DNA of 64,000 nt from Gammaproteobacteria bacterium. Lineage in GTDB: Bacteria; Pseudomonadota; Gammaproteobacteria; CAJXQU01. The stretch's first letter is position 1; every line of letters begins with the position of its first letter. The translations under genes were made by a program, and so were the position numbers. Under the pieces are notes generated by a model. The model ran no database searches. It had not been told where the DNA came from and worked only from the letters and a program-made list of their open reading frames with translations. Location: the NCBI GenBank assembly GCA_965238175.1, contig CBDEGZ010000003.1:992001-1056000 (forward strand), given 5' to 3'. Shown here piece after piece: positions 56,704 to 62,548 of the stretch.

Positions 56704-58158
56704 TCATGGGTTATTTATATTTATAGGGTTTGTACTAAAATGATCTGCAATAACCTCTGCCACGCAACAGGTTAATTTCTTCCCAGTAGGTATATGTAAA
56801 AACTCATTCGGACCGTGGGCATTTGATTTTGGTCCGAGGACGCCGGTGATCATAAATTGTGCTTGTGGAAATTTTTCACCGAGCATTCCCATAAATGGAA
56901 TTGATCCGCCTTCGCCCATATGTACGGCTTGTTTGCCGAAGAAATCCTTTGATGCGTTATTGATTGAATCTTCTAGCCATGGTGTCAGCTCAGGTGCATG
57001 CCAGCCACTTGCAGCCCAGTCAGGAGTGAAGGTGATTTTTGCATTGTAGGGTGGATCACTTTCCAAAATTTGTTTGAGCTTGTTCGAGGCAATTTCAGCA
57101 TCCACTGTTGGCGGTAATCGTAGTGATAATTTGATTGATGTTTTAGGACGTAGAACATTTCCAGCACTTTCAATATCTGGCAATCCACCTGCACCGATGA
57201 CCGACAAGGCAGGTCGCCATGTTCTGTTTAGAACCAGTTCTGCGAGATCATAACTGATCGGTTTTGCTTTATGGTTTTCTTCTCCAACAAAAGGAAATCG
57301 TGAGTAAGATTTTTCGCCGATTACCTCCGCAGCAATTTTCGCTTGTTGTTGTCGTGATTGTGGAATTTCAGCCTGACATTCTGCAAGTAATATTTCGCCG
57401 GTTTCTGCATTTTCGATGCGGTCAATTAATTGTCGAACGATCCGAAAGGAGTCGGGAACAATCCCACTGGCATCGCCAGAATGTGCGCCTTGTTTGATGA
57501 TTTCTACGGAGAGTTCACCGCCAGCCAATCCGCGTAAAGAGGATGTGCACCAGAGTTGATCATAATTTCCGCAACCGGAATCTAAACATATGACTAAATC
57601 TGGTTGACCGATACGATCAGAAAGTTCGTCAATGTAAAAAGGCAGATCGTAACTGCCGCTTTCTTCACAGGCTTCGATGATGACAACGCATCGTGCATGT
57701 GGAATATTTTGTTTTTGTAACGCAGTAATCGCAGTGAGGGACGAGAACATTGCATAGCCATCATCAGCGCCACCACGACCGTACAATTTGTCGTCTTTGA
57801 TTACCGGAGTCCACGGGCCGAGCCCTTCCTTCCAACCGGTCATTTCCGGTTGTTTATCGAGATGGCCATAGAGCAAAATCGTGTTGTCAGATTTGCTTGC
57901 TTCAGTGGCTGGAATATCCATAAAAATTAAAGGCGTTCTTCCTTCAAGCCGAACGACGTCTAATTCCATTTCTGGATTTTTTTGATCTTTGGCCCAACGA
58001 ACAAATTGATCAACGACTTTTTCCATGTAGCCATTTTCTTGCCAATCTGGATCAAACGCTGGAGATTTATTTGGGATACGAATGTAATCAACGAGTTCGG
58101 GAATTATTTGGTCATCCCAAACTTTTTCGACGTAGTTTTGTAATTCTTTTTTATTCAT
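56704..58158 (-). CDS. M20-family metallopeptidase (dipeptidase-like)
   Basis: YGHLDKQP, GRGGADD, EESGS, NAHGPNE. Confidence 0.93.
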   Translation of the reverse strand: MNKKELQNYVEKVWDDQIIPELVDYIRIPNKSPAFDPDWQENGYMEKVVDQFVRWAKDQKNPEMELDVVRLEGRTPLIFMDIPATEASKSDNTILLYGHLDKQPEMTGWKEGLGPWTPVIKDDKLYGRGGADDGYAMFSSLTAITALQKQNIPHARCVVIIEACEESGSYDLPFYIDELSDRIGQPDLVICLDSGCGNYDQLWCTSSLRGLAGGELSVEIIKQGAHSGDASGIVPDSFRIVRQLIDRIENAETGEILLAECQAEIPQSRQQQAKIAAEVIGEKSYSRFPFVGEENHKAKPISYDLAELVLNRTWRPALSVIGAGGLPDIESAGNVLRPKTSIKLSLRLPPTVDAEIASNKLKQILESDPPYNAKITFTPDWAASGWHAPELTPWLEDSINNASKDFFGKQAVHMGEGGSIPFMGMLGEKFPQAQFMITGVLGPKSNAHGPNEFLHIPTGKKLTCCVAEVIADHFSTNPININNP

Positions 58159-58280
58159 TTTCAGATTATATTTTTAGATAATTTTATAAGTAACCTGATG
58201 TGATGGTCTCCTCCCCCTAACGGCATCTAGGTGCCATGATTGAACTGACATACACACAATCAAAAGAGGAGAAGACCAAA

Positions 58281-59294
58281 ATGAAGACTACAACAATCGG
58301 GTTAGACATAGCAAAAAACGTATTTCATGCTGTCTGCTGTAATCAACAAGGGCGTATAATCAAAAAGAAAATGTTAAAGCGAGCGCAGGTACTCTCCTTT
58401 TTTCAATCTCAACCTCCTTGTTTAGTCGCAATAGAATCTTGTGCAACGTCACAGTATTGGGCCCGAGCGATACAACAACAGGGACATCAGGTGAAATTAC
58501 TACCACCTCAGCATGTTAACGCATTTCTAATCGGCAATAAGAATGATTATAACGATGCCTTGGCCATCGCCGTTGCTGCGAAACAACCTCATTTAAAAAG
58601 TGTGGGCATTAAATCAGTTGAGCAACAAGACAACCAGGCACAACATAAAGCAAGAGACTTAGCGGTCAGACAAAGAACCGCATTATGTAACCAAATGAGA
58701 GCGCTTGTTGCAGAATATGGCATTAGCCTTCGTCCCGGCCTAAATACCCTACGTCAATCTATCCCGTTGCTATTAAGTGATGAGAACGAACGGTTGTCCG
58801 TTACTTTCAAAAGGATACTGCGCCAGCTAAAGGAACAATGGCAATCACTTGATGCCTGTATTGCGACATTTGACCAATTGATCATTCAATCGGCAAAAAA
58901 CAATGCGATTTGCCAACGCTTACAAACTATTCCAGGGTTTGGGCCGATGGTCTCGAGCGCGTATTTTAATGAAGTGGGAAACGGCGCTCATTATCACAAA
59001 GGGCGCGATGTGTCCGCCTCATTAGGACTTGTTCCACGACAGTACAGTAGTGGTGGTAAAGAGGTGCTACTGGGGATCAGTAAACGCGGCAATAAATACC
59101 TTCGTTGTTTGTTAATTCTAGGCGCGAAGGCCGTGGTATCAAGAGCCAAAACGAAAGGCGATAAACTGAGTCAATGGATTAATCGTTTAGTTGAGACGCG
59201 GGGGCATAATCGAGCGTGTGTGGCGTATGCCAACAAAATGGCAAGAATGGCCTGGGCTATAACGGTTTCTGGTGATGACTACTCACCGGCCTAA
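58281..59294 (+). CDS. IS110-family recombinase/transposase
   Basis: GLDIAK..E..KNDYNDA (DEDD RuvC-like), GLVPRQYSSGG; GAGGAG RBS before 58281. Confidence 0.96.
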   Translation: MKTTTIGLDIAKNVFHAVCCNQQGRIIKKKMLKRAQVLSFFQSQPPCLVAIESCATSQYWARAIQQQGHQVKLLPPQHVNAFLIGNKNDYNDALAIAVAAKQPHLKSVGIKSVEQQDNQAQHKARDLAVRQRTALCNQMRALVAEYGISLRPGLNTLRQSIPLLLSDENERLSVTFKRILRQLKEQWQSLDACIATFDQLIIQSAKNNAICQRLQTIPGFGPMVSSAYFNEVGNGAHYHKGRDVSASLGLVPRQYSSGGKEVLLGISKRGNKYLRCLLILGAKAVVSRAKTKGDKLSQWINRLVETRGHNRACVAYANKMARMAWAITVSGDDYSPA

Positions 59295-59299
59295 ATAGA

Positions 59300-59510
59300 G
59301 AGAACAAATCATTTCAACGAATTGCGAAGGTAAAACTAAAGATGGCATAACAGGTCAAACCAGCCTATTGAAAACCTGTCGAGCTCAGGGGTAACTAATA
59401 CCGATAACCTGATAAGGAAAATAGGCGCGTAATACATCCAGGTCAGAAGTTGAAAACTTCATTGAAGGCCGTATATATGACAGCAATCCTGTCCCTGTTA
59501 TCTGAATGTT
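59300..59510 (+). ncRNA. Predicted bridge/seekRNA of the IS110 element (boundaries approximate)
   Basis: Stem-enclosed segments matching the target (TAACCTGA, CGAGCTCAGG) and the donor junction (ATATATGA, TACATC). Confidence 0.7.
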
Positions 59511-59577
59511 TTATCTTGCAATACGGGAGGAGACCATATATGAATTCGGGATAAGAATGACTATAAAAACATTAAAG

Positions 59578-60803
59578 TGTAGAAATTCAGATTTGATCTG
59601 ACAGTTACCCAATTATCAGTAACCGACTGTCAGGTTAAGTTTAATTCACAAACTTTTCCTTCCAGATAGCTTGTCCGTCGATGAGTGTTTCCATCGGCGT
59701 CCTCCCGCAGCACATTTTGCCTTGGTGAGTTCGTTGAGTATTGTATTTGAGCAACCATTCGTCAAGGTCGAGTTGCAGTTCATCAATCGATTGGTAAATT
59801 TTCTTACGCAAAGCGACTTGATAAAACTCATTGAGGATCGTCTTATGGAATCGCTCACAAATACCATTCGTCTGAGGTGATTTGACCTTGGTTTTGGTGT
59901 GTTCGATATTGTTCAACGCCATATAAAGCTGATAATCATGCTGGTCAGCTCGCCCACAATACTCCGTCCCTCTATCTGTCAAAATGCGCAACATAGGCAA
60001 ACGTTGTTGTTCGTAGAATGGGAGGACGCGGTCATTGAGCATGTCAGCTGCCGTAATCGGTGTTTTAGTCGGGTACAGTTTCGCGTGAGCGACCTTGCTG
60101 TAAGTATCAACAAACGTTTGTTGATAAACCCGACCAATGCCTTTGAAAGTACCGACATAGTAAGTATCTTGCGAGCCAAGATAACCAGGGTGTGCCGTTT
60201 CTATCTCGCCACAAGCCTCATCGTCGTCTTTTTTGCGTTCCATCGCCGCGACTTGAGACTCAGTGAGGATCAAGCCTTCACCAGCTACCTTATCAGACAA
60301 TGCCTTCAGGCGATCTTTAAAGCAAGCAAGACCATGACGAAGCCAGATACAACGAACGCCACTGGGTGAGACAAATGTTCCCCGTTTGCGCAGCTCGTTA
60401 CTGGTGCGCGTTTGACCATGTGCGGGCTCTTCCAGTGCATACTCGAGCACAACGGTTTCAATAGCCGGGTCGATTCTGTTTTTAAGATTTGGGGTACGCC
60501 GATTACGATCAAACAAGGCTTCTACACCGCCTTCATCAGCCGCTTCTTTGTAGCGATAAAATGTATCTCTGGACAAACCCATCATCTTGCAGGCTTTTGA
60601 GACATTGCCGAGTTCTTCAGCGAGATTGAGTAGACCAACTTTATGTTTTATAACTTTGTCATTAGTATGAATCATGAGAGTTACCTCTTTGTGTTTTGAT
60701 GTTTACGTTGCAGTTACATCAAAGCGGGTAACTCTCACTAAATCAAGCGTCGCTACGCTCCGCTTGATTTAGTGATGTGTCAGATTGGGTCTAAACTTCT
60801 ACA
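59578..60803 (-). mobile_element. IS481-family insertion sequence, copy 2 (1226 bp, no TSD)
   Basis: Inverted near-identical copy of 3075-4300; flanks ATTAAAG / GTTCA do not match. Confidence 0.93.
59641..60675 (-). CDS. IS481-family transposase
   Basis: Identical to 3203-4237 except YEQQ vs YEEQ. Confidence 0.95.
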   Translation of the reverse strand: MIHTNDKVIKHKVGLLNLAEELGNVSKACKMMGLSRDTFYRYKEAADEGGVEALFDRNRRTPNLKNRIDPAIETVVLEYALEEPAHGQTRTSNELRKRGTFVSPSGVRCIWLRHGLACFKDRLKALSDKVAGEGLILTESQVAAMERKKDDDEACGEIETAHPGYLGSQDTYYVGTFKGIGRVYQQTFVDTYSKVAHAKLYPTKTPITAADMLNDRVLPFYEQQRLPMLRILTDRGTEYCGRADQHDYQLYMALNNIEHTKTKVKSPQTNGICERFHKTILNEFYQVALRKKIYQSIDELQLDLDEWLLKYNTQRTHQGKMCCGRTPMETLIDGQAIWKEKFVN

Positions 60804-60808
60804 GTTCA

Positions 60809-62153
60809 TATATGGTCTCCTCCCGTATTGCAAGATAAAACATTCAGATAACAGGGACAGGATTGCTGTCATATATACGGCCTTCAATGAAGTTTTCAAC
60901 TTCTGACCTGGATGTATTACGCGCCTATTTTCCTTATCAGGTTATCGGTATTAGTTACCCCTGAGCTCGACAGGTTTTCAATAGGCTGGTTTGACCTGTT
61001 ATGCCATCTTTAGTTTTACCTTCGCAATTCGTTGAAATGATTTGTTCTCTCTATTTAGGCCGGTGAGTAGTCATCACCAGAAACCGTTATAGCCCAGGCC
61101 ATTCTTGCCATTTTGTTGGCATACGCCACACACGCTCGATTATGCCCCCGCGTCTCAACTAAACGATTAATCCATTGACTCAGTTTATCGCCTTTCGTTT
61201 TGGCTCTTGATACCACGGCCTTCGCGCCTAGAATTAACAAACAACGAAGGTATTTATTGCCGCGTTTACTGATCCCCAGTAGCACCTCTTTACCACCACT
61301 ACTGTACTGTCGTGGAACAAGTCCTAATGAGGCGGACACATCGCGCCCTTTGTGATAATGAGCGCCGTTTCCCACTTCATTAAAATACGCGCTCGAGACC
61401 ATCGGCCCAAACCCTGGAATAGTTTGTAAGCGTTGGCAAATCGCATTGTTTTTTGCCGATTGAATGATCAATTGGTCAAATGTCGCAATACAGGCATCAA
61501 GTGATTGCCATTGTTCCTTTAGCTGGCGCAGTATCCTTTTGAAAGTAACGGACAACCGTTCGTTCTCATCACTTAATAGCAACGGGATAGATTGACGTAG
61601 GGTATTTAGGCCGGGACGAAGGCTAATGCCATATTCTGCAACAAGCGCTCTCATTTGGTTACATAATGCGGTTCTTTGTCTGACCGCTAAGTCTCTTGCT
61701 TTATGTTGTGCCTGGTTGTCTTGTTGCTCAACTGATTTAATGCCCACACTTTTTAAATGAGGTTGTTTCGCAGCAACGGCGATGGCCAAGGCATCGTTAT
61801 AATCATTCTTATTGCCGATTAGAAATGCGTTAACATGCTGAGGTGGTAGTAATTTCACCTGATGTCCCTGTTGTTGTATCGCTCGGGCCCAATACTGTGA
61901 CGTTGCACAAGATTCTATTGCGACTAAACAAGGAGGTTGAGATTGAAAAAAGGAGAGTACCTGCGCTCGCTTTAACATTTTCTTTTTGATTATACGCCCT
62001 TGTTGATTACAGCAGACAGCATGAAATACGTTTTTTGCTATGTCTAACCCGATTGTTGTAGTCTTCATTTTGGTCTTCTCCTCTTTTGATTGTGTGTATG
62101 TCAGTTCAATCATGGCACCTAGATGCCGTTAGGGGGAGGAGACCATCACATCA
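60809..62153 (-). mobile_element. IS110 family, IS1111 group, copy 2 (1345 bp)
   Basis: Reverse-complement copy of 58196-59540. Confidence 0.92.
61055..62068 (-). CDS. IS110-family recombinase/transposase
   Basis: Protein identical to copy 1. Confidence 0.96.
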   Translation of the reverse strand: MKTTTIGLDIAKNVFHAVCCNQQGRIIKKKMLKRAQVLSFFQSQPPCLVAIESCATSQYWARAIQQQGHQVKLLPPQHVNAFLIGNKNDYNDALAIAVAAKQPHLKSVGIKSVEQQDNQAQHKARDLAVRQRTALCNQMRALVAEYGISLRPGLNTLRQSIPLLLSDENERLSVTFKRILRQLKEQWQSLDACIATFDQLIIQSAKNNAICQRLQTIPGFGPMVSSAYFNEVGNGAHYHKGRDVSASLGLVPRQYSSGGKEVLLGISKRGNKYLRCLLILGAKAVVSRAKTKGDKLSQWINRLVETRGHNRACVAYANKMARMAWAITVSGDDYSPA

Positions 62154-62167
62154 GGTTAAGTATTTTT

Positions 62168-62548
62168 TTATGTAAAGTGATCAAGCAGAACGAATATCCA
62201 GATAACCAAGCAATTGATCAGGCTGATCAAAACAGCGGCACTACCGACATCTTTTGCACGTTTTGATAGGTCATGTTTTTCTAATGAAACGCGATCAACA
62301 ATGGCTTCGATGCCTGAGTTGATTAGTTCTACGATCAAGACCAGAAAGATAGAACTGATCATGAGTGCTTTTGCTAACAAACTAACGGGTAGAATGAATG
62401 CAATGATGGTTAGTGGTATACCCAACGCCAGTTCTTGTCGGAAAGCAGATTCGTGTTTGTAGGCGGAGCGTAATCCATCTAGAGAATAGTGATAAGCATT
62501 AAATACACGACTTAGTCCAGTGGTGCCTTTGAAAGGGCTTTTCTTCAT
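62168..62548 (-). CDS. dgkA: Diacylglycerol kinase
   Basis: HESAFRQE, ELINSGIEAIVDR, AKDVGSAAV. Confidence 0.96.
   Translation of the reverse strand: MKKSPFKGTTGLSRVFNAYHYSLDGLRSAYKHESAFRQELALGIPLTIIAFILPVSLLAKALMISSIFLVLIVELINSGIEAIVDRVSLEKHDLSKRAKDVGSAAVLISLINCLVIWIFVLLDHFT

Follow-up and report, generated by a model that had tools for sequence, protein, structure and literature searches.

The 64,000-nucleotide stretch analysed here (the window, G000:C3:992001-1056000; all plain coordinates below are window positions) comes from a gammaproteobacterial genome of 3.35 Mb and 40% G+C, whose family comprises one small genus in the collection searched. Between a gene for an M20 peptidase (56704-58158, minus strand; PF01546) and dgkA (62168-62548, minus strand; PF01219), the window contains a block bounded by two copies of the hexamer TAAGTA (58187-58192 and 62157-62162). 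Next to the left hexamer is ACC (58193-58195, plus strand), which comparison with empty ends reading TAACCTGAACTCGGGATAAG identifies as the outer 3 nt of the left end repeat of a MITE (miniature inverted-repeat transposable element) derived from an IS982-type insertion sequence (IS). It is followed by a 1345-bp IS of the IS1111 type, IS110 family (copy A, 58196-59540, plus strand), and by the inner 37 nt of the MITE left end, TGAATTCGGGATAAG...CATTAAAG (59541-59577, plus strand). There the MITE is interrupted by an IS481-family IS of 1226 bp with the ends TGTAG...CTACA (59578-60803, minus strand). The right side of the block consists of GTTCA, a remnant of the MITE right end repeat (60804-60808), a second 1345-bp IS that is identical to copy A and mirrored (copy B, 60809-62153, minus strand), and GGT, the outer 3 nt of the right end repeat (62154-62156). 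Copy A has a transposase gene for 338 amino acids (aa) at 58278-59294 on the plus strand and a predicted target-binding module of a seekRNA or bridge RNA at 59363-59428 on the same strand. The corresponding features of copy B are on the minus strand at 61055-62071 (transposase) and 60921-60986 (predicted RNA module). We conclude that an RNA-guided IS1111-type element has very probably integrated separately into both ends of an IS982-derived MITE.

Copies A and B were returned by a repeat finder as one inverted repeat of 1372 nt, shared flanks included. Excision of both in silico leaves the junctions ACC^TGAATTCGGGATAAG on the left and GTTCA^GGT on the right. The older element that remains has a left remnant of 40 nt and a right remnant of 8 nt (ACCTGAAC on the other strand), the latter abutting the IS481 end. 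An earlier note on this DNA, made from the sequence alone, had given these junctions and two 1345-bp copies, and re-reading showed its coordinates to be exact. It had further described an older transposon with inverted ends inside a 6-bp target duplication. The inverted ends are indeed present, but what they enclose is not a simple transposon: it is a truncated MITE with an IS481-family IS, which the note did not mention. The duplication is confirmed by the congener G002, in which the M20 peptidase gene and dgkA are adjacent and the flanks are 85-87% identical to those in the window. The G002 spacer (...GATAAATTAAAAGTATTTTTTATGC...) has a single AAAGTA and is without the ACC...GGT element, and because of this empty site we read the ACC...GGT block as an insertion that duplicated 6 bp (TAAGTA). 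A search of the genome contigs for the M20 peptidase found only distant relatives (68% or less).

Judged from its sequence, the 1345-bp element is a member of the IS1111 group of the IS110 family. Its transposase matches PF01548 (E-value 3.6e-16), PF02371 (6.4e-20) and NF033542 (score 302.8 bits, cut-off 140; named "IS110 family RNA-guided transposase"), and we assign it to the DEDD (RuvC-like) recombinases via these domain matches. The motif GLVPRQYSSG fits GL-P----SG, and an upstream ATG at 58236 would provide an alternative start and a protein of 352 aa. On the plus strand of copy A, a 7-nt left extension, TGATGTG (58196-58202), precedes the subterminal inverted repeat ATGGTCTCCTCCC (13 bp, 58203-58215). 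Its partner, GGGAGGAGACCAT (13 bp, 59525-59537), forms a perfect pair with it and is followed by the 3-nt right extension ATA (59538-59540). The 7-nt and 3-nt extensions were placed by comparison with uninterrupted targets. The transposase gene leaves 82 nt of non-coding sequence upstream and 246 nt downstream. For the IS1111 family, a published study gives subterminal repeats of about 11-13 bp with extensions of 7 bp on the left and 3 bp on the right, and it defines the group by a downstream non-coding region, a transposase of 330-350 aa and a GL-P----S(t)G motif (PMC11187229).

The genome contains 24 complete copies of this element, 22 at 100% and two at 99.93% identity, plus one copy cut by a contig start and a few relics; both window copies are 100% identical to other genomic copies. 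In a DNA search, G003 was the only one of six congeners to show the element, represented there by 196 nt at the end of a contig. The nearest transposases among 400 genomes of the class share 50-56% aa identity with it, and six relatives have the same subterminal repeat and the same 7 + 3 extensions. In contig set X1, the element forms a unitig of 1352/1353 nt (58191/58192-59543) with a depth of 139, compared with 5-8 in the flanks. This depth fits about 25 copies that share AACC, the IS and TGA; the contigs are probably from the assembly's own sample and hence not independent of it. The relics comprise a left part that is 79% identical (G000:C3:2357911-2358383), an 83-nt left-end fragment (G000:C3:1154716-1154798) and two overlapping, inverted left-end fragments of 40 nt (G000:C3:1393274-1393339), all of them located after AACC.

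Each of the 24 complete copies has AACC as its left flank and TGA as its right flank; position -5 is a T in 23 of them, and their orientation relative to this site is identical. That both window copies occupy the same base, as the note had pointed out, is thus no coincidence, since the whole set has one site and one orientation. Unoccupied ends read TAACCTGAAC and occupied ends read TAACC[IS]TGAAC. Uninterrupted genomic sites read TAACCTGAACTCGGGATAAG, which assigns AACC to the target and shows that insertion of the IS causes no duplication; the target is repeated only by 2-3 nt at the left end of the IS. We considered AACC as part of the IS and ruled this out, given the sequence of the empty ends and the relatives that keep the 7 + 3 extension rule.

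As for the location of the sites, three of the 24 copies are in the ends of full-length IS982 copies of about 1 kb, 13 in the ends of MITEs of about 200 bp or in solo ends of the TGAAYYCRGGATAA type, and two in degenerate end repeats. Three more, including the right copy in the window, occupy an 8-nt tip that is followed by an IS481 end, and the other three are at unrelated sites that still read TAACCTGA, one of them inside an IS481 copy. With all 24 copies at TAACC^TGA, but for the T in one of them, and 21 within IS982-type or MITE end repeats, the specialisation on IS982-like elements and MITEs that the note had suggested is well borne out. The copy inside an IS481 copy (G000:C3:589235-590585) is at CTTAACC^TGACAGTCGG, a look-alike of the programmed site, and the three IS families are thus nested in one another.

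The IS982-like character of the ends had been put forward in the note, and the genome itself supplied the element behind it. Self-comparison revealed a 1045-bp repeat in five copies with ends resembling those of the MITEs (ACCCCAACTCGG.../ACCT(C/G)AGATCGG...). The family is known for elements of about 1 kb, terminal inverted repeats that start with AC and a short target duplication. The repeat encodes a transposase of 312 aa (L087:649-1587), which matches the IS982 family with 271.3 bits (NF033520; cut-off 130) and with PF13612 (E-value 1.5e-77). One copy (C3:116795-119144) has a perfect 6-bp duplication, TAGTTA, and the left end of another (C3:1090213) is exactly of the MITE type. The MITEs are non-coding, about 190-235 bp long, and have ACCTGAAYTCGGGATAAG ends. 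Of 13 paired elements, 7 lie between perfect direct repeats of 6 bp (TAnnTA type). The window element and one IS982 copy are in this group, and the duplications include TAGTTA, TACTTA, TATTTA, TAAGTA and TAACTA. By sequence comparison, we classify the elements of about 200 bp as MITEs derived from the IS982-family IS.

Whether an end is occupied follows its tip closely. In a survey of end repeats (inner match to CTCGGGATAAG with no more than two mismatches), a perfect TAACCTGAA tip was occupied in 13 of 17 cases and an imperfect tip in 1 of 28. The five IS982 copies show the same pattern: all three ACCTGA ends among their 10 ends are occupied, and the remaining seven, with ACCCCAA, ACTCCAA, ACCTCAG and ACCCCAG tips, are all empty. 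One copy, G000:C3:526562-527605 (L087 563-1606), has both ends uninterrupted and an intact transposase of 312 aa. Its tips, ACTCCAA and ACCTCAG, mismatch the guide described below and may thus be escape variants. A mini-palindrome of two tips at G000:C3:393939-395310, with about 27 nt between them (IS excluded), has one tip occupied; the empty tip, TGAGCTCGG, is a perfect complement of guide T, yet it is unoccupied. The 6-nt flanks at this locus (TACTTA, TAAGTA) are inverted, not direct.

The RNA module was predicted from the alignment of eight elements and from matches to the target. Two putative guides in copy A, both on the plus strand, account for these matches. Guide T, CGAGCTCAGG (59380-59389), is the complement of the top strand CCTGAGCTCG, and guide B, TAACCTG (59405-59411; TAACCTG(A) to 59412 with the following A), is identical to the top strand. 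T precedes B, and the two guides overlap on the target sequence CCTG. The same order, with the top-strand complement first and the two matches overlapping in the target, is described for IS1111 seekRNAs (PMC11187229). Among 500 shuffles of the downstream non-coding region, an 8-nt sense match occurred in 18 and an antisense match of 9/10 in 19, and none had both.

The eight aligned elements, namely this IS, the six relatives and the G003 fragment, share one scaffold: an outer stem, a 3-bp stem, a variable segment of 10 nt, a small hairpin and a variable segment of 7 nt. Compensatory changes are found at 3 of 15 scaffold pairs, and the variable columns are those of the guides. For the seven elements with a known left flank, guide B is identical in five to the 5 nt on the left of the respective element together with the 2-nt core, and in the other two it matches at 6 of 7 positions. 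The complement of guide T agrees with the element's own target at 6-10 of 10 positions, and at 8 of 8 in the G003 element, whose left flank is unknown. Guide T is best or tied-best on its own target in five of the eight rows and 1/10 below the best in the other three. The G003 element has the guide CGAATTCAG and a site, TGAATTCGG, in the same MITE family. Across the elements, the first two bases of the left extension are the same as the first two of the right flank (TG or CG), as expected for a 2-nt core. We therefore regard the RNA guidance that the note had proposed as supported, on comparative grounds, by the guide-target matches and their covariation across related elements.

The sites of the six relatives mostly read GTAGGT^YGGG and then a hairpin. 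Those of the nearest ones, L113, L115 and L118 (in G143, G031 and G298), read GTAGGT^YGGGTTAGC... before the hairpin, and they resemble the GTAG repetitive extragenic palindromic (REP) target reported for the Coxiella IS1111 (PMC5896051). A terminator-like hairpin with a T-rich tail (59479-59493) is located downstream of the predicted guide module at a distance of about 50 nt; it could be the 3' end of a longer precursor RNA. Further to the right, TTGCAA (59516-59521) is separated, by reading, by 17 nt from the final two bases of the IS. If the ends were abutted in a circle, these two bases would complete a -10-like hexamer with the first four bases of the left end. A promoter scan of the inserted state made no call at the IS right end.

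The IS481-family passenger encodes an IS481-type (HTH plus rve) transposase of 344 aa (59641-60675, minus strand; NF033577, 278.4 bits against a cut-off of 224). This IS has multiplied massively in the genome, to 57 full-length copies with 99.1-100% identity, and 39 of the 57 have a perfect 7-bp duplication of the AT-rich nnTwAnn type; the window copy is without a target duplication. Several pairs of IS481 copies have swapped flanks, including a pair sharing ACTTATG, which points to recombination between copies. Two weak Rfam matches to psRNA2 (RF02349), at 59557-59606 and 60678-60816 (26 and 18 bits; gathering score 65), fall on the IS481 ends, which suggests that IS ends may have contributed to the making of this small RNA family.

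The junctions of the truncated module are not confined to the window. The left junction, IS110/37 nt/IS481, occurs at three loci (the window, C3:~5401 and ~1391371), and the right junction, IS481/GTTCA/IS110, also at three. Only in the copy of the module at C3:4143-5401 are the IS481 duplication (ATTAAAG) and a larger part of the MITE body preserved. The synteny with G002 is interrupted where IS copies lie. Mobilisation in trans could account for the truncated module, as could copying between loci via identical flanking IS copies. A second composite site with a TAATTA duplication (C3:1390019 and 2865987) was considered and dropped, TAATTA being present in 4 of 25 left flanks. Also counting against it, the homologues of C3:1390000 and C3:1196375 are joined to each other in G002, and the 701 nt to the left of C3:2865990 have no G002 match.

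The history that would best explain the locus begins with the arrival of an IS982-derived MITE in the interval between the M20 peptidase gene and dgkA, with duplication of TAAGTA. Acquisition of an IS481-family IS and loss of most of the MITE body would have followed, and the same IS1111-type element would afterwards have entered each of the two end repeats. In this process, a DEDD recombinase would work with a seekRNA or bridge RNA from the 3' non-coding region, in which guide B would specify the 5 nt of the top strand left of the cut plus the TG core and guide T would complement the top strand over the core and 6 nt rightward. The programmed site, TAACC^TG(A)RCTCG, coincides with the tip of IS982-type end repeats, which is why integration falls 3 nt inside such ends. 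The left end of the IS always points outward, and the two copies are therefore in mirror orientation when both ends are occupied. By analogy with the family, the element would be excised as a circle with a promoter at the junction, its RNA would be made and bound, and the recombinase and RNA would recognise both strands. An end split 3 nt from its tip would probably be unusable by the IS982 transposase. The IS may thus immobilise its host element, and it may benefit from a harmless landing site, a safe harbour.

Several observations weigh against this account. Three of the 24 copies are outside end repeats. Guide T is complementary at only 9 of 10 positions to each of the two commonest tip types and, by hand count, at 8 of 10 positions to the left target in the window and at 7 of 10 to the right one. 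A scan of 58100-62300 with Rfam 15 (E-values up to 1) detected no bridge-RNA family; its only hits, the weak psRNA2 matches and one microRNA model, were below gathering scores. In a listing of public runs, no RNA run was named and the stretch was covered only by Logan contigs of one sample; these assembled contigs contain no circle or excision joint, which speaks neither for nor against such events. Finally, the truncated inner module recurs elsewhere in the genome.

The recurring junctions also speak for a different history, in which the whole 3.96-kb block is a composite unit that moved in one piece, already with both IS110 copies. The left junction is the same at three loci and so is the right, and all five visible module tips are occupied. 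With 13 of 17 perfect tips occupied genome-wide, however, five of five is not unusual. Exchange via identical flanking IS or IS481 copies can spread the module as well, and traces of such exchange are seen in the recombination between IS481 copies with shared ACTTATG flanks and in the G002 synteny broken at IS copies. Moreover, the 6-bp duplication and the ACC/GGT tips are of the IS982 type, and a transposase is unlikely to use ends that are split by 1345 bp at 3 nt from the tip. IS110-family elements themselves produce no duplication (PMC11187229). We therefore consider movement as a composite unit improbable. It is slightly less probable still that the mirror pair goes back to a single insertion and a later inversion, duplication or recombination between distant IS110 copies. 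The genome is heavily rearranged at IS copies, which would be in keeping with such an origin. The outer flanks of the block, however, are contiguous in the congener and carry a matching duplication, and recombination with a distant copy would break this contiguity. Both copies also occupy the same position, each in its own end repeat, and have the orientation found at every other site.

The least probable alternative, in our judgement a very remote one, is that the recombinase protein or the DNA structure of palindromic ends selects the site and that the matches in the non-coding region are incidental. The end repeats do form palindromes, and just 8-9 nt of the target are invariant. Against this, the guides co-vary with the targets over the eight elements while the protein-binding subterminal repeats are identical, and three insertions are at non-palindromic sites that share just TAACCTGA. 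In other IS1111 members, experiments have shown the seekRNA to be essential and programmable (PMC11187229). Separate, RNA-guided integration into the two MITE ends accommodates these observations best.

A broader picture is possible, and we offer it tentatively, as rather unlikely in its full form. The genome may record a three-layer arms race, in which the RNA-guided IS comes close to saturating the matching IS982 and MITE tips, the uninterrupted IS982 copies mismatch the guide, the guide tracks the local tips between species, and identical inverted IS copies serve as recombination arms. If this were true, the two inverted 1345-bp copies, acting as such arms, would explain the module at three left and three right junctions.

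The finding opens no new principle. It provides a clean natural case of one transposable element homing on the ends of another via a predicted RNA guide. Genome sequences alone suffice to read this guide, its target and the empty site, together with the putative escape variants and a retargeted clade. The catalogue of IS1111-type targets is thereby extended to IS982-family ends and their MITEs. The eight natural guide-target pairs on one scaffold may be of use in working out which positions are programmable in this subgroup. Annotation is affected as well, as such nested IS create 1.3-kb inverted repeats and break assemblies.

Some other features of the genome were noted in passing. Contig C1 (10,967 bp) has 55.8% G+C, compared with 40.4% for the chromosome, and could therefore be a plasmid, phage or foreign DNA; contig C2 (8,481 bp) has 43.9%. 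Contig C3 contains further repeat families, among them one of about 1274 bp in 8 copies, one of about 1110 bp in 4 and one of about 4960 bp in 8, with example loci at G000:C3:213557-214830, 710596-711707 and 2003849-2008809.

Relationships of this kind have precedents. The end repeats of Tn3-family transposons are 38 bp long, and IS4321 and IS5075 reportedly insert into those of the Tn21 family. Like these two, the element described here is of the IS1111 type and takes a fixed position and orientation inside the end repeat of another transposon. It differs in using the tips of IS982-family IS and MITEs, 3 nt from the end, and its transposase is at most 56% identical to the nearest relatives sampled. 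In Pseudomonas putida H, IS1383 is said to target the inverted repeats of IS1384; like our element, it is an IS110-family IS that has another insertion sequence's inverted repeats as its specific target. The organism and the family of the host IS are different, and in our case MITEs are the main target and the guide RNA is readable.

In Coxiella burnetii, IS1111 inserts into QMITE2, with which 20 of 21 copies are associated (PMC5896051). Both systems involve an IS1111-family IS for which MITE copies are insertion hot-spots, but the Coxiella target is an internal GTAG REP palindrome of the MITE, whereas here it is an end-repeat tip shared with an autonomous IS982-family IS. Other targets named in PMC11187229 are REP for ISPa11 and attC for ISKpn4 and ISPst6. 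No IS110-family element aimed at IS982 ends was found in the open-access text, although the target logos of more than 300 IS behind Fig. 8 of PMC11187229 could contain one. The suggestion in the earlier note that the pair had not been described therefore stands for the partner and not for the kind of relationship: the latter is known from IS4321/IS5075, IS1383 and QMITE2, and only the IS982 partner seems to be new, within the open-access text searched.

In its combination of a DEDD recombinase with a non-coding RNA, the element resembles ISEc11, ISPa11, ISKpn4 and ISPst6 (PMC11187229) and IS621 (PMC11208160). The seekRNA of IS1111-type elements is encoded in the right end, with T before B (PMC11187229). 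Compared with those seekRNA and bridge RNA systems, the scaffold predicted here is known from the comparison of eight natural elements alone. Within this group, the nearest relatives are set on GTAGGT^YGGG REP-like hairpins, whereas the element in the window and that of G003 are set on IS982-type ends.

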